Origin: Chloroflexota bacterium | Lineage (GTDB): Bacteria; Chloroflexota; UBA11872; VXOZ01 | Assembly (NCBI GenBank): GCA_963663275.1 | Contig: OY760183.1 | Span: forward strand, 384,001 to 448,000 | DNA: 64,000 bases | Reading direction: 5' to 3' | In this document: piece by piece, positions 3,852-33,612 of the stretch | Layout: each line of letters opens with the position of its first letter | Position numbering within the stretch: the first letter of the stretch is position 1 | Notes under the pieces: model-generated | What the model was told of the DNA's origin: nothing | The model's input: the letters and a program-made list of their open reading frames with translations, nothing else | The model's database searches: none | Translations under genes and position numbers: made by a program

Positions 3852-4807
3852 TAAGACACGGTTGAGTCCGTTATCCGTACCGCGTAATGGAAGACCTCGT
3901 TGAGGAATGCAATCCATTCCGCGCCGTCATGGGCCAAGTCGTCCAGCAAGAATACCTTGACAACGCCCATGTCATCGAGCCTGGCTTTCATTTCCGGTGT
4001 AACGACGCCCGCGACCAGGAAGTTAACGCAATTCGGCGGCGTCGCTTCAAAGCTCTTCTGCATCGCGCCCAGACGTTCGAGCGCGCCGGCCGGGTCTTTG
4101 CCCCCCTTTATCTCAATCGTTGCGACCAGCCTCTCATCACCCCCGGTGTCTTGTCGAAACAGGATGTCCGGCTCGGAGCCAAAGCGCATCCGGTAGCCAT
4201 TTGGCAACCGGAACTCCGTTTCTTCTTCATCCTGAGCCAACACCAACCGCCGGCTTTCCAGCCAGTTCCTGATCCGAGTCTTTACCAGGTTTTCGGCGTC
4301 GCGGCCGATAATGTTGCGAAACGTCCCATCCAGCCCTATGCCCATGTTGGCGATGATGTTCCGATAGCCGTTCTCTAGGCTCCAATTCGTCGTGCCCTCG
4401 ATAATTGAGGAAATCACGGCATTGTAGAGCCGGGCTACGCGCAGGCTCTGCTCGTCTCCGATGGGCGCTTTGCGCGAGCCGTCTTCCCAAGAGGACACGG
4501 GCACGGCAATGTCCGCCACCCGCTTCTGCGGCAGCAACGCTATCCCACGGTAGTATTGCGAGGTTCGAGGATGTTCTCGGAGAAGCAGGGGATGGGCGAA
4601 CACCAGCTTGGGATCTATACCGGAAACCGCAACGCACTCCCACGCCTGCTCGCTGATCATCAGTTCGTCCAATGGCCCGAAATCCAGCTCTCCCCTGAAA
4701 CTCTCGATCAACGTTCTCAGGTCTTGATCCGTCCGTTGCCGGATTCGCTCCGCCATCAGCGTTGACCTGAGCCGCGCGTCGTCCAGGCCGTTCACGTCCG
4801 CACCCAC
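3851..4807 (-). CDS. Type II restriction endonuclease, XcyI-like
   Basis: PD-(D/E)XK core SEPDI...IEIKGG; overlaps the end of the adjacent methyltransferase gene. Confidence 0.7.
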   Translation of the reverse strand: MGADVNGLDDARLRSTLMAERIRQRTDQDLRTLIESFRGELDFGPLDELMISEQAWECVAVSGIDPKLVFAHPLLLREHPRTSQYYRGIALLPQKRVADIAVPVSSWEDGSRKAPIGDEQSLRVARLYNAVISSIIEGTTNWSLENGYRNIIANMGIGLDGTFRNIIGRDAENLVKTRIRNWLESRRLVLAQDEEETEFRLPNGYRMRFGSEPDILFRQDTGGDERLVATIEIKGGKDPAGALERLGAMQKSFEATPPNCVNFLVAGVVTPEMKARLDDMGVVKVFLLDDLAHDGAEWIAFLNEVFHYAVRITDSTVS

Positions 4808-6183
4808 CTATAGACGCATTTTCTGATCTCGCGCCTCCCAAAGCGGCCCATTTGCTGGCTGGAGTTGCCCTTGCCCCGGGGCAGCATCCAGATATTCTCG
4901 CAGACGAATCCCGACTGCTCCGCAAAGTCGGACAGGATAAGGTCTACCGGCGCTTCTTCGCCGTGGTACTGGACGTTGTCGTTCACCATGATTACGGCGC
5001 CGCCCGGGCGGATTACCCGGCCCAACTCCGCGACAACGAGCGCCATCTCCTGAAAGTACCCTTCCAGCAGCCTGATCACGTGCCTGTTGCTCAACTCGCT
5101 TACGTGCTCTTCGAGTATCCCGAGCACCTCGTGGATGGCTGCCTGATTCCGGTACATTGCCAGCGCGCCATCCAGCAGGCCGGGATTCCCACTGTATACC
5201 TGGCGCAGCCACGAGAGTTTCGACTTGCTCTCCACGGTTGCGGACAACATCCGCTGCCGCAGGTCGCTGAAGCCTTTCTGATCGAAGCCAAGCCAGGCGA
5301 GTTCCAGCGCGTACGTGCGCGTGTAGTCATATCTGTTGGCGTAGGGAGGCGAGGTCAGCGCCATGTCGAACTGCGCGTCCTCCAACGCTTGCATCGAGTC
5401 CAGACACGACCCGGTGATCAACCTCGGACTGCCGCCTCCGTACTCTTGCTTGAGTATCTCTATGTCCTGGGACATCTCGAACAACCGCGCTCCCAGCGCC
5501 TGCTCGAACGAGAGAATAGGCCCCTTGTGCACCTTCGCCCTCAGGTTTCGACCGGACCGGTAGTCCCAGCGCAGGTACTGGCCGTCCTTGCGCGTATAGC
5601 TCACGTCTTCGAGGACTGTCATGCATGCCACGTTCAGCAGCGTTTGCAGCACACGATCATCAATGGAAGCAATGAACTGCCGGGCCTTGGCAATGGCAAT
5701 CTCCGTCGTCTCCGGAAAGGCCGCCTGCGTGATGGCGACGTGGGGGAACGCAAATCCCGCGGGCGCCGGTTCATCGGACGAGATTCTGCCAATCAGTTCG
5801 CTGCCCACGGCTTCGAGTTCCGTCTTGGCTACCCCGTTAGCGGCATGGGCGATCGCATTGCCTACCAACACGCCAACGGGCATTATCTCGATCCCCGTCG
5901 CCGCGCTCCCCTTGCTCGCGGCAATCAATGGCGTGGTGCCGATGCCGGCGAAGGGATCGAGCACGGCCGCCGGTTGGTGTTCGTCGATGAACCGCTCCAC
6001 GAGACCGCTGGAAAAGCCCTCCTTGTACTTCATCCACCGCAGACCGGGAACCTGACGGTTTCCCTGATAGGAAACTGCTTTGCGGCTGAAGCCGGCGTTG
6101 ACGGATATGCGATCCCCGAAGCGATCGTTAAGCGCCTGGCGGCCCGCAACGCTGCCTCCATTGGGAGAAATCAGCGGCTCCAT
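4792..6183 (-). CDS. Site-specific DNA amino-methyltransferase (probably N4-cytosine)
   Basis: Motif I DPFAGIGTT precedes motif IV TSPPY. Confidence 0.88.
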   Translation of the reverse strand: MEPLISPNGGSVAGRQALNDRFGDRISVNAGFSRKAVSYQGNRQVPGLRWMKYKEGFSSGLVERFIDEHQPAAVLDPFAGIGTTPLIAASKGSAATGIEIMPVGVLVGNAIAHAANGVAKTELEAVGSELIGRISSDEPAPAGFAFPHVAITQAAFPETTEIAIAKARQFIASIDDRVLQTLLNVACMTVLEDVSYTRKDGQYLRWDYRSGRNLRAKVHKGPILSFEQALGARLFEMSQDIEILKQEYGGGSPRLITGSCLDSMQALEDAQFDMALTSPPYANRYDYTRTYALELAWLGFDQKGFSDLRQRMLSATVESKSKLSWLRQVYSGNPGLLDGALAMYRNQAAIHEVLGILEEHVSELSNRHVIRLLEGYFQEMALVVAELGRVIRPGGAVIMVNDNVQYHGEEAPVDLILSDFAEQSGFVCENIWMLPRGKGNSSQQMGRFGRREIRKCVYRWVRT

Positions 6184-16108: not shown

Positions 16109-16727
16109 TCTGCTCTGGTACGCGCTCTTCATCGTCATCGGCTACCTGGCCGGGTCCATTCCCAGCGGGTGGCTGGTGGCGCGCGTCTTCCACCGCGCGG
16201 ACATCCGCGAGCACGGCAGCGGGCGCACCGGCTCCACCAACGTGTGGCGCACGTTCGGCGTGGCGGCCGGCATTGCGTCGTTCGTCGGCGATACGCTGAA
16301 AGTCATCCTGCCGCTGGTCGCCCTGCGGCTGGCGCTGCCCGGCAATCCGACCGGAGAGGTCATCACGGCGCTGGCGGCGATCCTGGGCCACAACTGGCCC
16401 GTGTTCATTGGCTTTCGCGGCGGCCGGGGAATCGTGCCGGGCGCGGCGGGCCTGGCCTTCATGGCGCCGCCGCTCATCGCCGTGCTGTGGGTGGTCTTCC
16501 TGCCGGTTATGTTCATCAGCCGCTACGTCTCCCTGGCGTCGCTCACCACCGTCGCCGCGGCCCCGGTTCTGATTGCCCTCGCCATGCTTTGGTTCCAGGT
16601 GCCCGTGGCGTATTTGGTCTACGCCGTGGTCGGCGGCGCGGTCATATTCGTGCAGCACCGCGACAACATTGCCCGGCTCATGGCGGGCACCGAGCGCCGC
16701 ATTTCGTTGAGCCGGAAGAACACGTAG
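16101..16727 (+). CDS. plsY: Glycerol-3-phosphate acyltransferase PlsY
   Basis: GYLAGSIPSG, DIREHGSG, GHNWPVF, FRGGRG, HRDNIARL. Confidence 0.95.
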   Translation: MADLLWYALFIVIGYLAGSIPSGWLVARVFHRADIREHGSGRTGSTNVWRTFGVAAGIASFVGDTLKVILPLVALRLALPGNPTGEVITALAAILGHNWPVFIGFRGGRGIVPGAAGLAFMAPPLIAVLWVVFLPVMFISRYVSLASLTTVAAAPVLIALAMLWFQVPVAYLVYAVVGGAVIFVQHRDNIARLMAGTERRISLSRKNT

Positions 16728-16764
16728 CCGCCTATTGCCTTTTCGCCGCTGAGGAAGAGGAGCC

Positions 16765-17562
16765 GTGCCGCCAGCAAACGACCGCGCCGCAACGCCTGAG
16801 CAAGGTGACGACCGGCCGGGCGCATGGGAGGCCTCCGCCGCGGAGGTCACGATCACCGCGCTCCGGCCACGGGGCGCGAAGGCGCACTCCTTTACGGTGG
16901 AACTGAGCAATGGCGAAGACCTGCGCCTGCGGGCGGAGACCGTGGCCGCGCGCGGGCTCAACGTGGGGGATTCTGTGGACACCGCCGCCGTGGCCGCCTG
17001 GCAACGGGACGACGACAACCGGCGCGCCGTGGAAGCCGGCCTCACTTTCATCTCCTACCGGCCCCGCAGCGCCAAGGAAATCACCGACCACCTGCGCAAG
17101 AAAGCCTTCGACGACGACGCCCGCGACCATGCGATCCAACGTCTCACGGCGTTAGGCTACGTGGACGACGCGGCGTTCGCCCGCTTCTGGGTGGAAAGCC
17201 GCGACACGCACAGGCCCAAGGGACGGCGGGCGCTGGCGTGGGAACTGCGCCAAAAGGGCGTGGCCGACGCGCTTATCGAAGACGCGCTGGCGCGCTTCGG
17301 CGGCGACGAGGCGGCGCTGGCGGAAAAAGTCGCCCGCAAGCGCGCGGCAACGCTGAAGACCGCTGATCCGTTCACGTTTCGCCGGCAGCTTGGCGCGTTT
17401 CTCGCCCGCCGGGGCTTCGGCTACGAGATTACCGAGCAGGTGGTGAACGAGATCTGGGAGGAACGGCGCGCCGGCCTTGAGCAAGCAGGCTTCGCGGAAG
17501 CAAGCGACGCGCAAGCCGACGGCGCTCCCTACGATGACGATGACGCTTTGCATAGGGTTTGA
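16765..17562 (+). CDS. recX: Regulatory protein RecX
   Basis: SYRPRS, LGYVDDAAFA, ELRQKGV, FLARRGF. Confidence 0.9.
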   Translation: MPPANDRAATPEQGDDRPGAWEASAAEVTITALRPRGAKAHSFTVELSNGEDLRLRAETVAARGLNVGDSVDTAAVAAWQRDDDNRRAVEAGLTFISYRPRSAKEITDHLRKKAFDDDARDHAIQRLTALGYVDDAAFARFWVESRDTHRPKGRRALAWELRQKGVADALIEDALARFGGDEAALAEKVARKRAATLKTADPFTFRRQLGAFLARRGFGYEITEQVVNEIWEERRAGLEQAGFAEASDAQADGAPYDDDDALHRV

Positions 17563-17588
17563 AGTGCGACCCCGCAACCTCGTATGAT
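17559..17588 (+). promoter_or_regulatory. Putative sigma70-type promoter of the Uma2 array
   Basis: TTGAAG-18 bp-TATGAT upstream of an AAGGAG RBS. Confidence 0.45.
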
Positions 17589-17623
17589 GGGTACAACCGG
17601 AGCCGCAGCAAAGGAGAGCGGAC

Positions 17624-18172
17624 ATGGCAAGTTCAGCGCCCACAGTCAAACTGACGTATGCGGACTACTGCAAAACGCCGGACGACGAGCGCTACGAGTT
17701 GTTGGATGGAGAGTTATTCGTGACCCCAGCGCCCAGAGAAGTCCATCAAAGAGTTTCGCGAAACCTAACCGCTCTGCTTTGGCAGTTGGCTAAAGAGTCC
17801 GGCGCGGGCGAAATCTATGCCGCTCCTTTCGACATCGTGCTGTCAGACACCAACGTCGTGCAGCCCGATCTGACATTCGTCTCCAGCGAGCGCGCCCACA
17901 TCATTACCGAGGCGAACGTGCAGGGCGCTCCCGACCTCGTGATCGAAATTCTCTCTCCCTCCACCGCCGACCGGGATATCACCGTCAAGCGCGAGATCTA
18001 CGCCAGGCACGGCGTGAAGGAGTACTGGATCGTGGACACCGACGCCAAGACGGTGACGGTGCTCTTGCGGGATTCCCAGGAGTTTGCGCTGGTAGGCGTG
18101 TGCGGCGAAGGCCAAACCCTGGATTCACCGACGCTTAGGGGATTTACGATCGACCCAGGTGAGATCTTCTAG
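17624..18172 (+). CDS. Uma2 family (DUF820) endonuclease, copy 1
   Basis: RYELLDG, QPDL, PDLVIEILSPST, EYWIVD; 182 aa. Confidence 0.92.
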   Translation: MASSAPTVKLTYADYCKTPDDERYELLDGELFVTPAPREVHQRVSRNLTALLWQLAKESGAGEIYAAPFDIVLSDTNVVQPDLTFVSSERAHIITEANVQGAPDLVIEILSPSTADRDITVKREIYARHGVKEYWIVDTDAKTVTVLLRDSQEFALVGVCGEGQTLDSPTLRGFTIDPGEIF

Positions 18173-18246
18173 CGCGTACACACTTCCACTACTACTGAGG
18201 CGACCCGCGCGCGCAGTGCGGCCGGCGCCGCAAGAGGACGGCAACC

Positions 18247-18795
18247 ATGGCTACCCCTACACCCGCTGTCAAGCTCACGTACGAGGATTACTGCAATACC
18301 CCGGACGACGAGCGTTATGAGCTATTGGGTGGAGACCTCGTCATGACCCCAGCGCCCGGAATGGCACATCAAAGAGTCTTGGTGAACCTTACCATTCTGC
18401 TAGGGCTGTCGGTTAGACGTACCGGTGTCGGCCACGTCTATATTGCGCCCTTCGACGTGGTACTTTCGGATACGAACGTGGTGCAGCCCGATCTGCTGTT
18501 CGTTTCCAACGAGCGCGCGCACATCATCACCGAGGCAAACGTGCAGGGCGCGCCAGACCTCGTGATCGAAATCCTCTCTCCCTCCACCGCCGACCGGGAC
18601 CTTACCGTCAAACGCGCGCTCTACGCCAAGCACGGCGTCCAGGAGTACTGGATTGTAGACATCGACGCCAGGACGGTGACGGTGCTGCTGCGGGATTCCC
18701 AGGAGTTTGCGCTGGTAGGCGTGTGCGGCGAAGGCCAAACCCTGGATTCACCGACGCTTAGGGGATTTACGATCGACCCAGGTGAGATCTTCTAG
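18247..18795 (+). CDS. Uma2 family endonuclease, copy 2
   Basis: Same motifs; 182 aa. Confidence 0.92.
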   Translation: MATPTPAVKLTYEDYCNTPDDERYELLGGDLVMTPAPGMAHQRVLVNLTILLGLSVRRTGVGHVYIAPFDVVLSDTNVVQPDLLFVSNERAHIITEANVQGAPDLVIEILSPSTADRDLTVKRALYAKHGVQEYWIVDIDARTVTVLLRDSQEFALVGVCGEGQTLDSPTLRGFTIDPGEIF

Positions 18796-18872
18796 CGCGT
18801 ACACACTTCCACTCTTGGGGACTGGAGCAGTCCTCTTGTAGAATGCGGTTGGCGATAGAAAGGGTGTCAACC

Positions 18873-19421
18873 ATGGCTAGCTCTACACCTGCTGTCAAGC
18901 TCACGTACGAGGACTACTGCAATACCCCGGACGACGAGCGCTATGAGCTATTGGATGGAGACCTTGTCATGACCCCAGCGCCCAGAGAGGTTCACCAAAG
19001 GGTCTTGATGAACTTCTCCTACCTGCTCTTTCAGGCCGTAACGCAAGCCAAGTCGGGCCGCGTCTACGCCGCGCCCTTCGATGTCGTGCTATCGGAAACG
19101 GACGTCGTGCAGCCGGACTTGCTATTCATCTCCAACGAGCGGGCACACGTCATTACCGAAGACAACGTCCAAGGCGCGCCGGACCTCGTGGTCGAAATCC
19201 TCTCTCCCTCCACCGCCGACCGGGATCTCACCGTCAAGCGCGAGATATACGCCAGGCACGGCGTCAAGGAGTACTGGATCGTGGACACCGACGCCAGGAC
19301 GGTGACAGTGCTGCTGCGGGATGCCGCAGGCTTTATCGAGATAGGCGTGTGCGCAAAAGGCCAAACCCTGGATTCACCAACCCTTAGTGAGTTTACGATC
19401 AACCCGGACGAAATCTTCTAG
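18873..19421 (+). CDS. Uma2 family endonuclease, copy 3
   Basis: Same motifs; 182 aa from ATG 18873. Confidence 0.92.
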   Translation: MASSTPAVKLTYEDYCNTPDDERYELLDGDLVMTPAPREVHQRVLMNFSYLLFQAVTQAKSGRVYAAPFDVVLSETDVVQPDLLFISNERAHVITEDNVQGAPDLVVEILSPSTADRDLTVKREIYARHGVKEYWIVDTDARTVTVLLRDAAGFIEIGVCAKGQTLDSPTLSEFTINPDEIF

Positions 19422-19492
19422 CGCGTGGACGTTTCCACTACCGAGGCGGCCCACTCACAGCCTGCTGCTTGCGCCGCGAGAGGACGACAACC

Positions 19493-20041
19493 ATGGCTAC
19501 CCCTTCACAAGCTATCAAGCTCACGTACGAGGACTACTGCAACACCCCGGACGACGAGCGCTACGAACTCCTGGATGGAGACCTGTTTATGACCCCTGCG
19601 CCGCGCGTAAGCCACCAGAAAGCGGTAATCAAGCTGGGCGCGCGCCTCTACTACTTTGTGGAGGAACGCGAACTGGGTGTCGTCTTGTCGTCTCCCTGCG
19701 ACGTAGTGCTGTCGGATACGGACGTTGTGCAACCGGACTTGCTGTTCGTCTCTAATGAGCGAGCACACATCATGACTGAGGAAAACTTCCAAGGCGCGCC
19801 CGATCTCGTCGTCGAGGTTCTTTCACCCTCCACCGCCGACCGGGATCTCACAGTCAAACGCGCGCTCTACGCCAAACACGGCGTCAAGGAGTACTGGATT
19901 GTAGACACCGACGCCAGGACGGTGACAGTGCTGCTGCGGGATTCCGCAGGCTTAATCGAGATAGGCGTGTGCGGTGCGGGCCAAACCCTGGATTCACCGA
20001 CACTTAGTGAGTTTACGATTAACCCGGACGAGATCTTCTAG
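19493..20041 (+). CDS. Uma2 family endonuclease, copy 4
   Basis: Same motifs; 182 aa from ATG 19493. Confidence 0.92.
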   Translation: MATPSQAIKLTYEDYCNTPDDERYELLDGDLFMTPAPRVSHQKAVIKLGARLYYFVEERELGVVLSSPCDVVLSDTDVVQPDLLFVSNERAHIMTEENFQGAPDLVVEVLSPSTADRDLTVKRALYAKHGVKEYWIVDTDARTVTVLLRDSAGLIEIGVCGAGQTLDSPTLSEFTINPDEIF

Positions 20042-20112
20042 CGCGTGGACGCTTTCACTACCGAGGCGGCCCACTTACAGCCTGCTGCCTGCGCCGCGAG
20101 AGGACGACAACC

Positions 20113-20661
20113 ATGGCTACCCCTTCACAAGCTATCAAGCTCACGTACGAGGACTACTGCAATACCCCGGACGATGAGCGCTATGAGTTGTTGGATGGAG
20201 AGTTATTCATGACGCCAGCGCCGCGCGTGCGCCACCAGAGAGCAATCAGAAAGCTGAGCGGGCAGCTTGACCTCTTTGTGGAGGAGCACACATTGGGGGA
20301 GATCTTCTTCTCTCCTTGCGACGTAGTGCTCTCAGAAACTGACGTCGTGCAACCCGACCTGCTGTTCGTCTCCAATGAGCGCGCGCACATCGTCACCGAA
20401 GACAACGTCCAAGGCGCGCCCGACCTCACGATCGAAGTCCTATCTCCCGCCACCGCCGACCGCGATCTCACCGGCAAACGCGCGCTCTACGCCAAACACG
20501 GCATCCAGGAGTACTGGATCGTGGACACCGACGCCAGGACAGTGACGGTCCTCTTGCTGGATGGCGCAAGCTTTGCGGAGATAGGCGTGTGCGCAGAAGG
20601 CCAAACCCTGGCCTCACCCACCCTGGCAGGATTCACAATCGACCCGGACACGATCTTCTAG
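20113..20661 (+). CDS. Uma2 family endonuclease, copy 5
   Basis: Same motifs; 182 aa. Confidence 0.92.
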   Translation: MATPSQAIKLTYEDYCNTPDDERYELLDGELFMTPAPRVRHQRAIRKLSGQLDLFVEEHTLGEIFFSPCDVVLSETDVVQPDLLFVSNERAHIVTEDNVQGAPDLTIEVLSPATADRDLTGKRALYAKHGIQEYWIVDTDARTVTVLLLDGASFAEIGVCAEGQTLASPTLAGFTIDPDTIF

Positions 20662-20720
20662 CGTCAACGCCCCGCGGCTTGATGTCCATCGTGTGCGCCC
20701 CGTCGTGAGCAATGCCCGGT

Positions 20721-22235
20721 CTACGCTTCTCCCGCCGCCGCGGAACCGTCATCCGGCAGAGCGCCTTTCAAGGCCGGATACACGGCCAAAAACACCTCGC
20801 ATTGCCGCTCGTACACAGCGGCCAGGCTTTCATCCGGCGCGTAGGTCGCTTGGATTGGCGGCCGCCACGCGGCAAGCCGGTTCAGATCCGCCTTCCCGGC
20901 GGCAACGAACGCCAGCATAGCCGCCCCTTGCGCCGCGCCGTCGCCGCTCTCGCTGACGGCTAAGGAACGCCGCAGCACGTTCGCGAGCGTCTGCGCAACC
21001 GGCGGGAACGCCGCGCCGCCGGTGACCGTAAGCGGGGAAATCTCCACGCCCAGGCGCGTCTCCATCTCCCCAACCACGTTGCGCAGCGCGAACGCGATAC
21101 CCTCCACCACCGCCCGCGCCAGTTCGGGACGCCCGGCGTCCAGGTTCAAACCGGAGAAGGCCCCCCGCGCCTCGCGGTCCCACAGCGGCGCGCGCTCGCC
21201 CATCAGGTACGGCAGAAAGACCGCGCCGCCCGCCCCCGGGGCGCTCTCGCCGGCCAGTTTCACCAGTTCTTCAACAGAATCCAGCCCCAGGAGCGCCGCC
21301 GCCCAGCGCAGGGTCGCGCCGCCGGTCAACGTCGGCGCCACGTGCAGGTAGCGGCCCGGCAAGACGTGGCGGCGCGTATAGAAACGCGGGTCAGCCACCG
21401 GGCGCTCCGTGCAGACCGTAAACACGCCGGTTGTGCCCAGCGAGAGCAATCCCGCCCGCGGCGTTGACAGGCCCGCGCCCACCGCCGCCGCCTGCGCGTC
21501 CGCGCCGCCCATGGCGACGGGCGCGCCCGCCGGCACGCCCAACTCCGCCGCGGTCGCCGGGAGAACCTCACCAATTCTGGCCTCGCACGGTAGGTGCGGC
21601 GGCAGTTTCTCCGGTGGGATGCCCACCCGCCGGCACCAATCGTCCAGCCAGCGCGGCGGCTCGTCCAGCGCGAAAAGTCCCGTAAGCTGAGCGTTGGCCC
21701 AATCGATCCCAAAGGCGCCGGTGAGCCGGTGCGCCAGGTAGGTCGTCAGGGAGCCAAGATAGGCGCAGGCCGCCACCAGTTCGGGCCGCTGCTCCACCAG
21801 CCACGCCATGCTGCTCAGCGTCGTGCTGCCGCTCTCGACGCGCATGCCGGTGCGCTTGACGATGCTCGACTGGCTCTCGCCCGCCAGAATGCGCTCCACC
21901 TGCGGAACGCTGCGCTTATCTTCATAGATGATGCCGTTGCAGAGCGGCGTCCCGTCCGCCGCCAGCGGCGCCACCGACGGCGCGAGCGAGGTGAGGCCGA
22001 TACCCACAATGCGCCGGCGCGCGGCAGCGCCGGGCAGCGATGAAAGCGCCGCCTGGCAGGCGGCGGCCGCGCCTTCCCAGCAGCGGTAGAAGTCAATCTC
22101 CGCCCAGCCGGGCCGCGGGCGTTTGATTCGCGTGGGCGCGCTGCCCCGCGCCGCGACGCTCCCCGCGCGGTCGCAGAGGACTACCTTGGTCGCGGTGCTG
22201 CCGACGTCGATGCCAATGGCGTATTCAGGAGACAT
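20721..22235 (-). CDS. FGGY-family carbohydrate kinase (xylulokinase-like)
   Basis: IGIDVGSTATK, GGADA, SLGTTG, FLPYLMGERAP. Confidence 0.9.
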   Translation of the reverse strand: MSPEYAIGIDVGSTATKVVLCDRAGSVAARGSAPTRIKRPRPGWAEIDFYRCWEGAAAACQAALSSLPGAAARRRIVGIGLTSLAPSVAPLAADGTPLCNGIIYEDKRSVPQVERILAGESQSSIVKRTGMRVESGSTTLSSMAWLVEQRPELVAACAYLGSLTTYLAHRLTGAFGIDWANAQLTGLFALDEPPRWLDDWCRRVGIPPEKLPPHLPCEARIGEVLPATAAELGVPAGAPVAMGGADAQAAAVGAGLSTPRAGLLSLGTTGVFTVCTERPVADPRFYTRRHVLPGRYLHVAPTLTGGATLRWAAALLGLDSVEELVKLAGESAPGAGGAVFLPYLMGERAPLWDREARGAFSGLNLDAGRPELARAVVEGIAFALRNVVGEMETRLGVEISPLTVTGGAAFPPVAQTLANVLRRSLAVSESGDGAAQGAAMLAFVAAGKADLNRLAAWRPPIQATYAPDESLAAVYERQCEVFLAVYPALKGALPDDGSAAAGEA

Positions 22236-22374
22236 AACCACCACCAGCGGGGGTCGCTAAAGACACCACAGAAGACGAAGATGGATTCCGGCCTGCGCCG
22301 GTAAGACGGAGTCCGGCGGGCCATGCCCATGGCAATCACCCTGGCCTTGCCAGGCGGCGCCGCATCGTCAGACG

Positions 22375-25074: not shown

Positions 25075-25603
25075 AAGGCATACTCCTCATCCGTTCGCCC
25101 TGAGCGTGTCGAAGGGCGCCCGTATGCCGCGGCAGTAGCCGCAATGCGTATTGAAGCCGTCGGTAGCCGGCAACCGTTCTTGCCGCATGGCAATTGCAAG
25201 CCTCAGCCTACGCGCCAACTTGGGGCGCACGCCCTGCCAGTATAGCACCCGCGCCGCCGCGAGGCGGATTCGGCTGGGTTCTGCGCGCGGGTCACGCGCT
25301 CCGCAAGCTGTGCCGGTCGTTCTGCGCACAGCAAGGGGTATGAAACGCGCTGCCTGAGCATTCCGGTTCTCAAAGCATTCTCCACTTGCCCGCCGCCCCG
25401 AGACACCGCTTACGCGAGCGGATGCTAGCCAAACAAAGGGGATTCCCTATAGCGGCATACCTGACAAGTCTGAGAGAATTCATACAGCCCACGTGCTCCG
25501 TTACCGGAAACTACCTTGACGTGCTCGATCACGTTGTCTAGCGTAGAGGGCATAGCGGGCAGCGCGGCATCGTCAATTGCGCAAAGGGCCGGAGGGATAC
25601 GCC

Positions 25604-28102
25604 ATGAAACGTCTTGCGGTACTCATCGGCTTTGCCTTGTTCCTGTTCATGCCGGCTTCCCTCTCGGCGGCGGAGTGCCAGTTCGTCCTCGGCTTTGCGA
25701 CCCTCCGCGACCTCATCGGCCACGACTTCGTCGGCGAGTGCCTGGAAGACGAGCACTACAACGCCACCGGCGACAGCGTGCAGCAGACCACCGGCGGCCT
25801 CCTGGTCTGGCGCAAAGCCGACAACTGGACCGCCTTCACCGACGGCTACCGCACCTGGATCAACGGCCCCAACGGCCTGGAACAACGCCTGAATACCGAA
25901 CGCTTCCCCTGGGAACCCGACTACGCCCCCGGCGGCGGCATCGCCACGCCCACACCCGCGCCGACACCTCCGCCCGCGCCGACACCTCCGCCCGCGCCAA
26001 CACCTCCACCCGCGCCGACACCCCCGCCCACGCCAACGCCCCCGCCTGACCCGGAGACGATTCACAGTGCCAAGCGGGCCTTAGCGGCCCTCTGGTGGGT
26101 ACAGGATGGATTGACGAACCTGGAGGAACGCGCGGTATCTTCCTTGCAAAGGCTGGCGCAAGAGCATCCCCGGGCCTTGCTGGCGCTTGTAGGAAAGCCA
26201 AAGGCGTGGCTGCCGCCGCGCTTCCAGGCGGATCTGTCAATTTACAGACCACTGTTGGCCCTTAGCGCCATAGATGAATCTGTGGTGGCGGAGTTCAGCG
26301 ACGTGCCCATGCTCAGGGAGAATGTCGCATTCACACGGGAAGCCCTCTCTATGCTGGCCTCGGTGTCGCAATCTAACCCGTCGTTTGTGCGAGAGGCTTT
26401 CTCTCATCCCCCGTTGCACGATACCTATGTGGCCGATGATGCGGTACGGCTCATGTTGTTCATTCTCAAAGCGGAAGACCCGGAGGCGGCTGCGATGATC
26501 GAGGCCCTGCCTTGGATCCGGGACGGAATAAACGCTCCTCCGTACTTGGATAGGAGTTCGGATGACGATCCGTCCGTGTTCGAGCGGTCTCATGCGCACA
26601 ACTTGGTGCTCTTGGCGCGCAACTCCCGGCAGACGTTCATCGAATTGATGAGCAAGGCCTGGATTCAGGACGGCCTGACGCAAACCGAGCATCAAGTGCT
26701 CTTCAACATCTTCGACCTGGTAGGAAACGACGTGGCATCGGCGCGCAAACTCGTCGCGATGCCCTTCCTGGAGACCATCGACGGCGGCGAAATCGTCATC
26801 CTGCAGTCAATGTCGGAGTGGACTTGGACCATAGACTACGTCCACGAGCGGTTTCTCGCCCATCCGGCGTTGTCCGGCGGCATAACCGACGAACACAAGG
26901 CAGCTATGGTCCTGGTTGGCTTGGAACTCGCCTACCCGGAAGAAGCGGCGATCATTGCCGCGCTGCCATGGGTCCAGGACGGCGTCACCGAAGAAGAGTT
27001 CGACGCTTTCCACCAGTTCCAGTGGATTGCCCTGGAATCCCAGGCACTGTTGCGCGCGCTAATCCAGAAGACTTGGGTTCAGGACGGCCTCACCACGGAC
27101 GAGCATTACGTGCTCTTCTATTTCTGGCGTTTCGCCAGTCTGCTCGATGACGAGGCGGCCTTGCTGCGTATCCTCGAGATGCCGTTCCTGGATGCTGTTG
27201 ACGGCGTCGACGCCGCGGCGCTCGGCTCTCTGTTCAGTTTGGGCATTTCGCGCGGCCAGACCTACCTATGGGAAGTCTTGTCTCACCCCACGCTGCGCGG
27301 CGGCATCAGGGATGAACACGCGGCCATCGTTGCGGTGCTCAGCGCCGTGGACTCTGTCGCGCCGGATTTGGTGAGTCCTATGCTCCATTCCGGGCAGGCC
27401 ATCGTCGAGCGGCGCGTACTCTCGTTGCCCAATCTTGGCCAGATAACGCTGGCAGTCATCCCCGCAAGCCAGCAGACGCCCAGCACGACAATGCAATGGC
27501 TGGAGCACGCGGTCCGCAGCCACGTGGAGTTCATGGGCACGCCCTCCCCCAGGAGCCACTTTGCCCTTTGGGTCCACGATAGAGCCGGCGTCAGCAGAGG
27601 GCCAACGGGGATTTACGGAATCCGCAACGTGGATAGCGCTAGCGAAATCGCCTATAGAACAGCGGGCGCCTACTGGCGCGCTGCGCCGCGGTGGCTTGCC
27701 GAAGGCACCGCGATCCTGCTGGAGAAAGTCTCGGAGCAGGCGCGCACTGGCACACCCATCACGCCGCGTGGAAGCGGCGAGTGCGCTCAAGCCAGGAATA
27801 TCGCCCACCTCGACCGGCTGACCTCTGACTCGCGCGACACAGGGAATTGTCCGTTCAACCTGGGGTCGGGCCTGTTCGTGGATTTGTACCACAGCCTGGG
27901 GGTTGAGGCGTTCCGGCAGGACTTCCGCAGCTTGAACCTGAAGTTGAGGAATTCCGAGCACTACGATGAGTGCGTCGGTATCGAGCGCGGCGTCTGCTAC
28001 GTGAAAGCCGCCTTTGTGACCGATGCGCCTCCGGCCCATGCGGCAATCGCAGAGCCAATCATCAACCGCTGGTACTACGGCTCGGCGCGTAGAGCCAATT
28101 AG
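25604..28102 (+). CDS. Exported protein: ECQFVLGF N-terminal module, PT linker, LPWxxDG repeats, degenerate gluzincin-like C-terminus
   Basis: Signal peptide, GGAGG RBS, repeated ALPWxxDG/MPFL/HPxLxGGI motifs, IAYRTAG...WLAEG. Confidence 0.8.
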   Translation: MKRLAVLIGFALFLFMPASLSAAECQFVLGFATLRDLIGHDFVGECLEDEHYNATGDSVQQTTGGLLVWRKADNWTAFTDGYRTWINGPNGLEQRLNTERFPWEPDYAPGGGIATPTPAPTPPPAPTPPPAPTPPPAPTPPPTPTPPPDPETIHSAKRALAALWWVQDGLTNLEERAVSSLQRLAQEHPRALLALVGKPKAWLPPRFQADLSIYRPLLALSAIDESVVAEFSDVPMLRENVAFTREALSMLASVSQSNPSFVREAFSHPPLHDTYVADDAVRLMLFILKAEDPEAAAMIEALPWIRDGINAPPYLDRSSDDDPSVFERSHAHNLVLLARNSRQTFIELMSKAWIQDGLTQTEHQVLFNIFDLVGNDVASARKLVAMPFLETIDGGEIVILQSMSEWTWTIDYVHERFLAHPALSGGITDEHKAAMVLVGLELAYPEEAAIIAALPWVQDGVTEEEFDAFHQFQWIALESQALLRALIQKTWVQDGLTTDEHYVLFYFWRFASLLDDEAALLRILEMPFLDAVDGVDAAALGSLFSLGISRGQTYLWEVLSHPTLRGGIRDEHAAIVAVLSAVDSVAPDLVSPMLHSGQAIVERRVLSLPNLGQITLAVIPASQQTPSTTMQWLEHAVRSHVEFMGTPSPRSHFALWVHDRAGVSRGPTGIYGIRNVDSASEIAYRTAGAYWRAAPRWLAEGTAILLEKVSEQARTGTPITPRGSGECAQARNIAHLDRLTSDSRDTGNCPFNLGSGLFVDLYHSLGVEAFRQDFRSLNLKLRNSEHYDECVGIERGVCYVKAAFVTDAPPAHAAIAEPIINRWYYGSARRAN

Positions 28103-29664: not shown

Positions 29665-32190
29665 ATGAAACGCCTCGCTCTACTCTTCGCCTTTGCCCTC
29701 TTCTTGTTGTTGCCCACGTCCGTTCCCGCGGCGGAGTGCCAATTCGTCCTCGGTTTCGCGACGCTGCGCGACCTCATCGGCCACGATATCGTCGGCGATT
29801 GCCTGGAAGGCGAGCATTACAACGCCACCGGCGACAGCGTGCAACAGACCACCGGCGGCCTGCTGGTCTGGCGCAAGGCCGACAACTGGACCGCCTTCAC
29901 CGACGGCTACCGCACCTGGATCAACGGCCCCAACGGCCTGGCGCAGCGGCTCAATACCGAAGTCTTCGACTGGGAGTTGGCGCACGCTCTGGAGTCATTG
30001 CCCTGGATACAGGATGGATTGAACGACAATCAGGAGCGATTTGTATCCGATACGCTCCACGGATGGGTTGATCAATTCCCTCTCGTAGCTTGGGAACTCG
30101 CTCAGACACCGTGGATGCGGTCCAGCCAATTGAATATTCCCCGCGTGCACTACTATTGGATGATTCAGTACATCGATACAGTTGTTCGGATCGATGAAGC
30201 AGCCGCGTTAAGGCTAATCAGGATGCCGTTCACGCAGAGCGTTGCTTTCGGCTCTACCAGCGCGTGGAGAACCCTGGCTCAAATAGTCGCCGCTGATCCT
30301 GAGGGCTTCGCTGCGCTCCTCGCCGATCCCAGGCTGGCTGACGGCATTCGCAGCGATCAGGCGGCGGAAGTCTCCGCGATCTATCTGGAAATGCTCGACC
30401 CTCCGGCGGCCGCCGCGATCAGGGGAATGGCATGGACGTATGAAGACCCATGGCGCGCCCATGAATTGAGAATCCTGGCTCAGATGTCGCCCCCTGTTTT
30501 CTGGGCTTGGATTGCCCAATGTCGTTCCTACCACGACCGCTGCCCCGGTACTTTGACGTCCATTACCGAATTGGCCCAGGCCGATGAGGAATCGGCATTG
30601 CGGATCATTAAGATGCCCTTCTTGAGCACCTGGAATCAGGGCAGCGACCAAGCGGTGCTAACGTATGCCGCGCACCTGGCCGAGGAAGACCCGGCCAGCC
30701 TCCGGCAAGTCCTATCCCACCCGAAACTGCGCGGCGGCATTACGGACGACCACATTACAACCTTCGCCCTGCTCGTCCTGGGAGTGGAGCGCCCGGAAGC
30801 GGCGGCCGCGATTATGGCCTTGCCGTGGGTCCGCGACGGCGTGCAACGGCCCGTAAGAGCATATGAGGTACACGCTGGAGATCCAGCGCAGTGGGAAGAA
30901 GACGTGGCGTTGAGCCTGGTGAGTATTGCCTGGAACTCTCCGGAAGCGGCGCTGGCGCTGGTGGGGAGGCATTGGCTGCGCGACGGCGTAAGTTGGGACG
31001 AACAACAGGTGATGAGTCAACTCCCCTGGCTGGTTGGGCCTGATCCGGCAACAGCCCTGCGACTTGTAGAAATGCCTTTCCTCGCGGTGTCCGCGTCAAA
31101 AGACGATTCCAGCATCATAGGCAATCTGATGGACATGGTGACGTATAGCCCAAACCCGGATAAGCCGGCGGTCCTGCGCGAGGTGCTCGACCACCCGTGG
31201 CTGCAAGGCGGCATCCGGGACGGCTACCGTCATGTCGTGGAGTTGCTGGCTGTCAGCAGGCAAAACCCTGAGATAGCGGCAGCCATCGAATCCTTGCCCT
31301 GGATCCAGGACGGCATCGACGCCTCTGAATTGCAAGCCATGACCGTCCTCTATGGGGTAGCCCTGCAAGCGCCGCATTATATCCCAATCCTGGTTTCACA
31401 TCCTTGGGCGCAAGACGGTCTCGACGCGGCCGATCAAAACAGGGTGCGCAGAGTTGTGGCAGAAAGATTCGGGCCCCAGCCCACACCCACGCCGTCCGTA
31501 CCACCGGCGGTCATCGCGGCGCAACGGGCGATAGCCGCCCTGCCTTGGGTGGAGGACGACGTCGAGAAACCTCCGGACTGGGGAACAGCCAGGGTGAGCA
31601 CACTCGAGCGTCTGCGCCGAGCACATGACAATTTGCAGCAAATCGCCGAGCATGCTCCGGAAGCGGCGATGGCTCTCGTTGGCAAGCGTTGGCTGCGCGA
31701 CGGCGTGACATCGTGGGAAGAGGAAGCGCTTCGCTACCTTGCCGAAATCGCTGAGTTTGACGCGGCATCGGCTCTGCAGATCGTGGAAATGTCCTTCCTC
31801 GCAGCGTCGGTAACGCGTGAGGATGCTAGCATTCTGGACACTCTGAGAATCATGACGTACTACAGTCCAAACTTGAACAAGCGAGAGGTCCTGCAAGAGG
31901 CGCTCACGCATCCCCTGCTGCGCGGCGGCATCTGGGACGGCTACCGTACTCGCGTGGAGTTCGTGGCGATTGGCATACAGTCTCCTGGGGTTGGGGCGGC
32001 CATCTACTCCTTGCCCTGGATCCGGGATGGCGTTGAAGGCGCTGAATGGCAAGCCATTACCGCCCTCTATGACGCATCGACGCGCACGCCACACTTCATC
32101 TCTGAATTGATCTTGTATCCGTGGGTGCGAGACGGCCTCAACAAGGACGAACAAGACAGGGTTCGGAAACTCATGCAGGACAACTATTAG
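29665..32190 (+). CDS. Exported protein with the same ECQFVLGF module followed by LPWxxDG repeats
   Basis: Signal peptide; about 80 aa nearly identical to the 25604 protein; internal duplicated block. Confidence 0.8.
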   Translation: MKRLALLFAFALFLLLPTSVPAAECQFVLGFATLRDLIGHDIVGDCLEGEHYNATGDSVQQTTGGLLVWRKADNWTAFTDGYRTWINGPNGLAQRLNTEVFDWELAHALESLPWIQDGLNDNQERFVSDTLHGWVDQFPLVAWELAQTPWMRSSQLNIPRVHYYWMIQYIDTVVRIDEAAALRLIRMPFTQSVAFGSTSAWRTLAQIVAADPEGFAALLADPRLADGIRSDQAAEVSAIYLEMLDPPAAAAIRGMAWTYEDPWRAHELRILAQMSPPVFWAWIAQCRSYHDRCPGTLTSITELAQADEESALRIIKMPFLSTWNQGSDQAVLTYAAHLAEEDPASLRQVLSHPKLRGGITDDHITTFALLVLGVERPEAAAAIMALPWVRDGVQRPVRAYEVHAGDPAQWEEDVALSLVSIAWNSPEAALALVGRHWLRDGVSWDEQQVMSQLPWLVGPDPATALRLVEMPFLAVSASKDDSSIIGNLMDMVTYSPNPDKPAVLREVLDHPWLQGGIRDGYRHVVELLAVSRQNPEIAAAIESLPWIQDGIDASELQAMTVLYGVALQAPHYIPILVSHPWAQDGLDAADQNRVRRVVAERFGPQPTPTPSVPPAVIAAQRAIAALPWVEDDVEKPPDWGTARVSTLERLRRAHDNLQQIAEHAPEAAMALVGKRWLRDGVTSWEEEALRYLAEIAEFDAASALQIVEMSFLAASVTREDASILDTLRIMTYYSPNLNKREVLQEALTHPLLRGGIWDGYRTRVEFVAIGIQSPGVGAAIYSLPWIRDGVEGAEWQAITALYDASTRTPHFISELILYPWVRDGLNKDEQDRVRKLMQDNY

Positions 32191-32394: not shown

Positions 32395-33612
32395 TCATTC
32401 CGCTTCGGCATCGTCTCTTTGCCGTTCTTCCTGGGTGCGCAGGGTATCCAGTTTCAGCAGTTGGCGGTCCATGGCGCGGCGTCTGGTGCCGGTGAGGGTA
32501 TCGAAGTCGTTGGACAGGCGTTGGAAGTCGGTTTCCAGCTTATCCAGGGCCGCGGCGTAGCGCGACCATTCTTTAGAGAACGCGGTCAGCAAGGCGTGCA
32601 TCTCGCCCGCCGCCTGTTGCATCGCGAAGAACTCGGCCGCCTGGCGAATCACGCTCAGCACGCCGAACAGGCTGAACGGCGAGCAGAGGATCACCCGGCT
32701 TTGCAGGCTGTGTTCCAGCAGCGCGGCGTCGCGTTGCAGGATGAAGCCGTACACCTGTTCCAGCGGGATGAAGAGCAGGGCGCAATCCACCGTATTGGCG
32801 GCCGGGTCGATGTATTCGCGGGAGGCCACCGCCTTCACGTGGCCGCGCACGTCGCGCAGAAACTGCTGCTCCAGCCGCTCCCGCGCTTCATCGGACTCCG
32901 CCTCCAGCGCGCGCAGGTAGTTATCCAGCGGGAACTTGACGTCCATGTTCAGGCAGAGCGCCTTGGGCAGGGTGAAGGTGAAGTCCGGGCGCGTGCCGGC
33001 CGCGGTGGTGGTCTGCTTGGTGTAGTGGATGTTGGGCAGCAGGCCGGCGGCGCGCAGCACGTCCTCGGCCATGCGCTCGCCCCACGCGCCCCGGGCGCGG
33101 CTGTTCGCCAGGGTCTCGCGCAGGCTCTGGGTGGTCTCCGTCAGCCGCTGGGTCTGTGCGGCGGTATTGCGGATTTCCGTCGTCAGGGCGCTCAGCCGCT
33201 CACCGCTCTGCGCCTGCACGTCGGTCATGAGCGTCCGCACCTGCTCCAGCGTGCCGCCCATCTGTTCGAGTTGCTGGTCGATCAGGCGCTTCTTGCCCTC
33301 CAGTTCCTGGGCGGTCTGCGTCTGCTGCGCGCCGAGTTGGCTCTTGGCGATCTCCACCAGTTGGTTGGTGCTCTGGTTAAGCGCCTGCAAAGAGAGCGTG
33401 CCGAACTGGTCGGCCACCTGCTGCAGCAGCGCCTGCGCCTGTTCCTGCTGGGCGCGCTCGGCCTGGCCGCGGATCTGTTCGCCAATCTCCTCGGCAGTGC
33501 GCCCGCGCCAGAGACCCACCAGCCAGGCCAGGACGAGACCGAAGATCAGTCCGATAACCAGCCCGCCTATGCCGCCGATGATGAGTTCGGCGAAATCGAT
33601 TGCGCTATTCAT
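32395..33612 (-). CDS. rmuC: DNA recombination protein RmuC
   Basis: N-terminal TM and coiled coil, RGAWGE, RPDF, MDVKFP, LFIP. Confidence 0.92.
   Translation of the reverse strand: MNSAIDFAELIIGGIGGLVIGLIFGLVLAWLVGLWRGRTAEEIGEQIRGQAERAQQEQAQALLQQVADQFGTLSLQALNQSTNQLVEIAKSQLGAQQTQTAQELEGKKRLIDQQLEQMGGTLEQVRTLMTDVQAQSGERLSALTTEIRNTAAQTQRLTETTQSLRETLANSRARGAWGERMAEDVLRAAGLLPNIHYTKQTTTAAGTRPDFTFTLPKALCLNMDVKFPLDNYLRALEAESDEARERLEQQFLRDVRGHVKAVASREYIDPAANTVDCALLFIPLEQVYGFILQRDAALLEHSLQSRVILCSPFSLFGVLSVIRQAAEFFAMQQAAGEMHALLTAFSKEWSRYAAALDKLETDFQRLSNDFDTLTGTRRRAMDRQLLKLDTLRTQEERQRDDAEAE

Follow-up and report, generated by a model that had tools for sequence, protein, structure and literature searches.

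Why would a bacterium carry five copies of one small gene side by side, nearly alike along most of their length and different from each other in a single short segment? The question is raised by a locus in a 64,000-nucleotide stretch of a Chloroflexota bacterium (assembly GCA_963663275.1, contig OY760183.1, positions 384,001 to 448,000), which we call the window and in whose numbering positions are given unless another contig is named. The window's listing of open reading frames (ORFs) holds five intact, co-oriented Uma2/COG4636 genes of 182 amino acids (aa) each, in tandem downstream of recX. They lie on the plus strand at 17624..18172 (copy 1), 18247..18795 (copy 2), 18873..19421 (copy 3), 19493..20041 (copy 4) and 20113..20661 (copy 5), with start-to-start distances of 623, 626, 620 and 620 bp; copies 3 and 4 are 182 aa long when read from an in-register ATG, within longer ORFs that begin at 18843 and 19469. 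A preliminary description of this DNA, made from the sequence alone, had reported the same arrangement with its 620-626 bp period, and the ORFs and the PF05685 and RecX matches bear it out, as the translations do for the motifs and all five variable strings that it quoted. Protein identity to copy 1 is 80, 75, 68 and 68% for copies 2-5, and the differences fall mostly at aa 38-67, a segment that comprises helix alpha1, a loop and strand beta1 (17735..17824 in copy 1, then 18358-18447, 18984-19073, 19604-19693 and 20224-20313, all on the plus strand). There is a smaller variable patch at aa 150-157, and the five copies fall into two C-terminal sub-types. The segment does differ in every copy, as had been stated, but not maximally so, since within it copies 1 and 2 (proportion of nonsynonymous differences, pN, 0.36) and copies 4 and 5 (pN 0.28) are related. 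We think it slightly better than an even bet that the array is a cassette of paralogous dimeric nucleases in which recombination keeps the protein body alike and the pairing surface is kept as a set of distinct types.

What kind of protein do these genes encode? All five copies match the Pfam family Uma2 (PF05685) over profile positions 4-170 of 172, with E-values from 7.1e-39 (copy 1) to 8.1e-37 and scores of 126.8-133.5 bits against a cut-off of 27. The family is large: of 8000 candidates scored in one homologue search, 7901 had E <= 1e-10; in one cyanobacterium, more than 2% of the genes reportedly belong to COG4636 (PMC551604); and Omelchenko et al. 2005 (PMC1274311) described an expansion in Thermus. 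A profile of the five copies run against PDB sequences found four solved relatives, 6okh, 9y1l, 1wdj and 3ot2, and a Foldseek search with the AlphaFold2 model of copy 1 returned the same four, with 6okh as the best match (TM 0.92, E 7.7e-23) and 9y1l, 1wdj and 3ot2 after it. That model, built on an alignment of 84 rows (the five window copies and 79 of 120 listed homologues), has a mean pLDDT of 94.2, and in it the variable segment contains helix 39-59 and strand 62-66. Feder & Bujnicki 2005 predicted the fold and an H-PD-EXX-K active site for COG4636, with H43/D83/E111/K127 as the site residues of all3650 and the lysine migrated to the following helix (PMC551604), and Steczkiewicz et al. 2012 list this family among predicted endonucleases and note multiple transfers (PMC3424549). 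Here, H41, P81-D82, E108 and K122 are invariant in the five copies; over the 84 sequences H41, D82 and E108 are invariant and K122 is conserved in at least 90%. With E108 in strand 105-109 and K122 in helix 115-128 of the model, H41/D82/E108/K122 would correspond to the H-PD-EXX-K site, a mapping made by motif order and model secondary structure rather than by alignment. Because these residues are kept in all five, all five copies look catalytically intact, and they are probably active nucleases. Weaker Foldseek matches go to the Holliday junction resolvases Hjc (2wiw, 2wcw and 1ob8; E 0.06-0.14) and to type IIG/IIL enzymes. The archaeal resolvases Hjc/Hje and the type II restriction endonucleases have the same catalytic fold, and their dimers put two active sites on one substrate; Uma2 differs from them in its lysine on the following helix and in having no methylase partner, and the similarity is at the level of the fold only. 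Our literature search on Uma2, DUF820 and COG4636 turned up no functional or biochemical study of any member in the portions of the literature accessible to it.

The place of the variable segment in the folded protein suggests what it might do. A homodimer prediction for copy 1 scored 0.42, against 0.00 for the best control, and passed the tool's mark; among proteins with solved structures, 20 of 30 determined as pairs and 1 of 23 determined as single chains reach that mark. Agreement between runs is 88% of contacts or better, and the partner's pLDDT is 84 or higher. The predicted interface consists of residues 36-40, 42-43, 45-47, 49-50, 53-54, 63-70, 80 and 94-98. In the model, one face of helix alpha1 packs on its symmetry mate (50-50', 53-50', 53-46' and 46-49'), strand beta1 adds to the contact, and Q42 touches partner residues 65-69, beside the invariant D70. 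The variable segment is predicted, then, to form a two-fold homodimer interface beside the catalytic His41. Variation is concentrated on this surface: at least three different residues occur among the five copies at 13 of the 28 interface positions, compared with 12 of the 154 others (Fisher p 2.7e-06). Of 42 pairs taken from within arrays (10 arrays, 2 genera), 40 are less identical at the interface than over the rest of the protein; among single-copy orthologues this holds for 22 of 36 pairs, and the pairs are non-independent. Residues 46, 50 and 53 are R, A and W in copy 1, V, I and G in copy 2, M, Y and F in copy 3, I, A and Y in copy 4, and R, G and D in copy 5, combinations that look like size and charge matching across the dimer axis. 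The preliminary description had hinted at hetero-oligomers, and diversity at the level of the oligomer does fit, because the variable segment coincides with the predicted dimer interface.

How could one segment come to differ so much between genes that are otherwise so alike? In the array, the other variable regions of the protein have been homogenised and aa 38-67 has not. Entropy at the N-terminus (aa 1-8) is 1.96 in 79 homologues and 0.77 in the five copies, and at the C-terminus (aa 148-182) 1.47 and 0.47, compared with 1.78 and 1.31 in the variable segment. Copies 1 and 2 differ at a proportion of synonymous sites (pS) of 0.037 over the C-terminal 35 codons (aa 148-182), compared with 0.37-0.58 elsewhere. 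In a tree of the scaffold, with the segment columns removed, genes group largely by species or array; segment types, unlike the scaffold, are common to several species. The helix type of copy 3, for example, is shared with eight genes of other species, and an approximately unbiased (AU) test on scaffold columns rejects a clade of nine one-type genes (delta lnL 122.5, p 1.2e-11), a group that was chosen after an earlier tree was known. Three single-copy species illustrate the same point: G004 and G005 have one segment type and G007 another, on scaffolds that are close (pS 0.12-0.16). Between G007 and G004, 33 of 87 nucleotides differ in aa 40-68 and 23 of 459 outside it, with a pS of 0.80 in the segment and 0.14 in the scaffold. 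Synonymous divergence raised in this way cannot come from selection on residues, so the segment must have been exchanged or differentially retained. Genes of the same type from different species have a pS of 0.24-0.29 in the segment, below the 0.48-0.52 of their scaffolds, so the types have been inherited by descent and are not convergent. Unequal crossing-over between tandem copies accounts for the changes in copy number, the chimeras and the homogenised scaffolds.

Does this contrast need a function at all? It could be neutral, with the segment as the least constrained surface of the protein and gene conversion homogenising the rest but stalling where divergence is high, in which case the contrast would have no functional meaning. 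We consider this unlikely, although mosaic tracts are obvious, per-column entropy in the five copies follows that in the 79 homologues (r 0.68), and among the five copies pS is itself higher in the segment (0.61-0.73 versus 0.39 elsewhere), as expected if conversion tracts skip it. The ratio of nonsynonymous to synonymous divergence (dN/dS), obtained from Nei-Gojobori counts by region and interface class, is also below 1 everywhere. Over the whole gene, the five copies have a dS of 0.48-1.07 and a dN/dS of 0.19-0.32, which indicates that they are old paralogues under purifying selection. Interface codons have a dN/dS of 0.34 among the five copies, versus 0.19 for the rest, and of 0.11 versus 0.17 over all 36 pairs of the nine single-copy species; given the latter values, interface residues are not free to drift. 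Between-species pairs of the same helix type give an interface dN/dS of 0.14 at a pS of 0.28, constrained like the rest, although picking pairs by helix similarity biases this value downward. Relative to pN elsewhere, interface pN is higher by a factor of 3.3 in this array, of 2.3 in an array of six copies from another genus and of 1.2 in single-copy orthologues, and the same contrast therefore appears in an independent array. Finally, the replacement of the whole segment in G007 relative to G004 and G005 means that conversion can cross it, and yet the diversity persists. On these comparisons the segment appears to be constrained within a type and differentiated between co-resident paralogues.

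A number of results nevertheless weigh against the view that distinct pairing surfaces are what is being kept. Not one comparison gave a dN/dS above 1, so the counts do not support positive selection on the segment, and this goes some way towards the outcome that the preliminary description had named as speaking against its own proposal. The segment ratios are weak because synonymous sites are near saturation, and simple counts in the presence of saturation and recombination neither show nor exclude episodic selection as the driver of the differentiation. Across the wider subfamily, too, this segment varies more than any other (an entropy of 2.07 bits at aa 43-61 in the 79 homologues, compared with 0.59 in the core), so lower constraint explains part of the pattern. 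Positions 50 and 53 have the highest mutual information of 595 pairs, uncorrected for entropy or phylogeny, but they are the two columns of highest entropy, stand at i and i+3 in one helix, and show a volume correlation of -0.13 that is not significant. The dimer is a model, and its passing score may reflect the solved two-chain relatives 6okh and 9y1l. Residues 55-61, which make up the C-terminal half of the helix, vary just as much and lie outside the confident interface. Lastly, arrays can include copies whose interfaces are nearly the same, such as copies 1, 3 and 6 of G026, so strict insulation does not hold for every copy.

Is the array a local accident or a long-standing part of these chromosomes? 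The source genome, 3.53 Mb in a single contig, has 11 Uma2 matches, of which five make up the array and the other six are dispersed. Among 41 genomes searched with the protein, 25 had matches at E <= 1e-20, including all 16 other species of the genus, and the locus was fetched from 15 of these 16 (G014, 69% complete and in 490 contigs, was omitted). The gene order der-plsY-recX-[Uma2]n-fggy-pfkB is found in the source genome and in 14 of the 15 relatives; in G009, the contig stops inside the array. There are five copies in the source genome, four in G011, three in G008, two each in G003, G001 and G012, at least two in G009, and one in each of nine species. Since the site is syntenic throughout the genus, with n from 1 to 5, the Uma2 gene has evidently long been established at this housekeeping site, and the array is a lineage-specific expansion. 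The earlier picture of a diversified array holds in that one segment is far more diverged than the rest and copy number varies from 1 to 5 between species; it does not hold for free hypervariation, as the types are old and shared. A second, Uma2-rich genus of the class has arrays of six, three, two and two copies of the same subfamily, at 60-65% identity and at another site, beside branched-chain amino-acid permease genes. We also surveyed 79 loci from other taxa, including Chloroflexota, Vicinamibacterales, Latescibacterota and Gemmatimonadota, four of them from genomes already examined. Tandem runs of at least two copies occur in 11 of these 79 loci, and runs of at least three only in records labelled Chloroflexota or Dehalococcoidia. 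The neighbours at 75 of the loci (142 ORFs) are heterogeneous and mostly metabolic, with about 10 that resemble restriction-modification (RM) or toxin-antitoxin (TA) genes, among them HsdR-like, Type ISP, HicA and TumE. RecX is found among none of the 142, so the adjacency to recX is specific to the genus. A role in repair, considered as a general reading, was rejected, as the recX linkage is confined to the genus.

The wide scatter of these genes bears on one of the roles proposed in print, which are a selfish or 'solo toxin'-like element and phage defence. Feder & Bujnicki 2005 describe horizontal spread and proliferation of COG4636 with no linkage to methylases, and propose that the genes are selfish elements whose cuts may cause tandem duplications (PMC551604). 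Applied here, the nuclease would nick or cut DNA and stimulate recombination together with its own tandem duplication, and the array would be a by-product. Homologues that sit as single genes amid unrelated housekeeping genes in many phyla, the 11 matches in the source genome, the 33-75 first-look Uma2 candidates per genome in a related genus and the tandem runs in other taxa are all what one might expect of such an element. An element of this kind would not, however, be expected to stay at one chromosomal site throughout the radiation of a genus, with a single copy in 9 of the 16 genomes examined, or to have all copies under purifying selection. No mobile-element gene flanks the array, the nearest transposase being about 15 kb off, and the diversity of the interface segment in particular is left unexplained. 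We find this the least credible of the explanations considered, and improbable.

The gene surroundings bear on the other proposal, defence. The preliminary description had favoured a diversified specificity repertoire, such as a defence or recognition array that might act as hetero-oligomers. On this reading, each copy would use its variable helix to recognise its own DNA or foreign target, and hetero-oligomers might multiply the range. All five copies do match PDC-S03, a single-gene defence candidate of PADLOC, strongly and through four models (PDLC04832 at E 8.3e-43 to 3.1e-40 across the five; copy 1 has a PDC-S03 match at 8.9e-42). Copy number and helix-type content vary between species, helix types are old and conserved as useful specificities would be, and the segment begins at the catalytic His41, beside active-site strands, such that changes at the interface could reposition active sites; the RM- and TA-like neighbours in other taxa point the same way. 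The PDC set, however, comprises 145 untested candidates according to Payne et al., found by their embedding in BREX, DISARM or type I RM systems (bioRxiv 10.1101/2024.01.29.577857). Some PDC members are so embedded, whereas the array here lies neither within nor beside a defence system: the only PADLOC match within 11 kb of it is the generic GTPase similarity of Der. A literature search for the name 'PDC-S03' found no paper. The site is a housekeeping one conserved across the genus and not a defence island. As the preliminary description said, no methyltransferase or antitoxin is adjacent. The nearest methylase (4795-6183) is 11.4 kb from the array and overlaps its own XcyI-like endonuclease gene, and no DNA methyltransferase was found between 6184 and 39640; nor was a cognate methylase or immunity gene found at the locus. 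Each repeat unit consists of one Uma2 gene only, no antitoxin gene adjoins the array, and spacers of 71-77 bp leave no room for an antitoxin ORF. In the model, moreover, the variable face packs on the partner subunit and is not free for DNA, dN/dS stays below 1, and the same segment varies family-wide. Taken with these points, a defence repertoire seems to us distinctly unlikely.

The same comparisons set the array apart from several known systems. It is not arranged like an RM system, which would have a methyltransferase in the same locus, or like a type II TA pair, which would have a small co-oriented antitoxin gene. It also differs from diversity-generating retroelements and invertible cassettes, as no reverse transcriptase or invertase family was found among the 37 ORFs of 128-42388, whose single gene of recombination type encodes an IS481-type transposase (1789-2919); no dedicated search for inverted repeats was made. 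With the Uma2/COG4636/DUF820 family, on the other hand, the array shares the Pfam match, the fold of 6okh, 9y1l, 1wdj and 3ot2, the H-PD-EXX-K set of residues, the tandem paralogues, and the habit of solo genes with neither methylase nor antitoxin. Makarova, Wolf & Koonin 2009 had already described cassettes of paralogous COG4636 genes, with 114 COG4636-COG4636 pairs (PMC2701414), and the family corresponds to PDC-S03 of PADLOC. The array is therefore a well-documented case of a known kind rather than the undescribed system for which it had been taken. It differs from the published cassettes in its genus-conserved site behind recX. In the portions of the literature that our search could reach, we found no description of a homogenised scaffold with retained, swapped types of helix alpha1 and strand beta1, nor of a variable segment that overlaps a predicted dimer interface. 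The analysis adds three things: a site conserved throughout the genus with n from 1 to 5, a history that is mosaic by segment, and a variable segment that falls on the predicted dimer interface next to the catalytic His.

How might these pieces fit together? On the reading that we favour, the array grew by unequal crossing-over from a single Uma2 gene between recX and the FGGY kinase gene, and recurrent gene conversion and crossing-over hold the gene bodies alike within a genome. The segment of about 30 codons (aa 38-67) persists as a few old, individually conserved types that are reshuffled between copies and species. The copies would be dimeric nucleases that pair through the segment and thus have differing pairing surfaces; they might form homodimers insulated from one another, or heterodimers in a limited set of combinations. 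The geometry of the interface may in turn change how the two active sites face the substrate, and could in this manner affect substrate choice. This account and the three alternatives weighed above are not mutually exclusive.

A bolder form of the idea is that the segment is an exchangeable specificity cassette, which sets subunit pairing and active-site spacing and gives each dimer a different DNA target. Five genes would then yield a combinatorial repertoire of up to 15 dimers; selection would maintain its diversity, and recombination of segments would reshuffle it between species. The target-recognition domains of hsdS in type I RM systems are a precedent for a specificity segment that escapes homogenisation in a multigene family under concerted evolution. 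The array resembles hsdS-like families in a constant frame kept by recombination around a short segment of distinct, exchangeable types. It differs from them in having no invertase or recombinase, no inverted repeats (for which no dedicated search was made) and no shown phase variation, and its segment is predicted to mediate protein pairing. We regard this form as very unlikely; were it true, one small fold would underlie a system akin to innate immunity or to self/non-self recognition.

The immediate setting of the array adds some detail. The upstream recX gene (16765..17562, plus strand) matches RecX_HTH1/2/3 at E 4.4e-18, 5e-15 and 1.1e-09, with the PlsY and Der genes farther upstream. Downstream, an FGGY sugar kinase gene with FGGY_N and FGGY_C domains (20721..22244, minus strand) is the convergent neighbour, and a PfkB-type kinase gene lies beside it on the opposite strand from the array. 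In a DNA alignment of the five units, the four spacers (18173-18246, 18796-18872, 19422-19492 and 20042-20112, plus strand) form part of the repeat unit; a purine-rich stretch precedes the ATG in each, and units 2-5 are alike there. A consensus scan found a promoter-like site closely 5' of copy 1 (TTGAAG, 18 nt, TATGAT; 17559..17588, plus strand), but shuffling predicts 0.9 such sites, so this single find does not point to a function, and the promoter and terminator scan overall stayed at chance level. An Rfam scan of 16500-21500 gave zero matches at E <= 0.1. The GC content of the array is 0.58-0.60, and that of its flanks 0.68-0.71. In the source genome and G011, two high-GC species with the largest arrays, GC at third codon positions (GC3) is 0.72-0.73 for Uma2 and 0.87 for flanking genes; in other species it is about 0.63-0.68 for Uma2 and 0.65-0.70 for flanks (for example, 0.66 and 0.66 in relatives). 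A horizontal origin, which the low GC of the array might suggest, was set aside: GC3 of Uma2 equals that of the flanks in most relatives, and only the two high-GC species lag. The arrays seem to lag a recent genomic rise in GC, or to have taken in sequence from lower-GC relatives.

Several further observations concern the wider window and other material. Outside the window, at G000:C1:1410023-1411122 on the minus strand, the source genome has a second, smaller Uma2 pair: two matches that belong to a different subfamily and are separated by about 200 bp. The type II RM pair at 3854-6183 (the XcyI-like endonuclease at 3854-4807, minus strand, overlapping the methyltransferase at 4795-6183, minus strand, PADLOC MTase_II E 2.2e-108) stands next to the IS481-type transposase, and these are the sole defence-type genes within about 20 kb of the array. 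An RmuC-family gene (32398-33612, minus strand; Pfam E 1.3e-63), a recombination-related nuclease fold, lies 12 kb downstream of the array with no evident link to it. Two paralogous ORFs of 841 aa (25577-28099 and 29665-32187, both plus strand) have no Pfam match at E <= 1e-5. They are 37% identical over 624 aa, with nearly identical N-terminal stretches of about 100 residues, a hydrophobic, signal-peptide-like start followed by internal repeats of the form LPW(I/V)(Q/R)DG, and in one of the two a Pro/Thr/Ala-rich linker. None of the sequencing runs listed for this DNA is of RNA. Logan contigs from four runs, compared with 16800-21500, are short and broken in the repeats, and their joints are mostly of low likeness or multi-mapping. 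In the runs X2, X3, X4 and X6, which carry the label 'sponge metagenome', there are short contigs that match parts of 16800-21500 at 90-100%, and one piece of 132 bases in X2 has zero differences at 17591-17722. Close relatives may thus live in a sponge habitat.

Having weighed what may keep these genes alike in body and different in one segment, we can ask what the locus offers. It is a compact natural experiment: a single structural element accounts for nearly all the differences among five intact copies, and relatives with one to four copies at the same site add to the comparison. If the segment is indeed a pairing surface, the array would exemplify cleanly how the interfaces of paralogues diverge under concerted evolution. 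If it sets target choice, the label of defence candidate would gain a mechanism. The array also offers direct handles for a first biochemistry of the Uma2 family.

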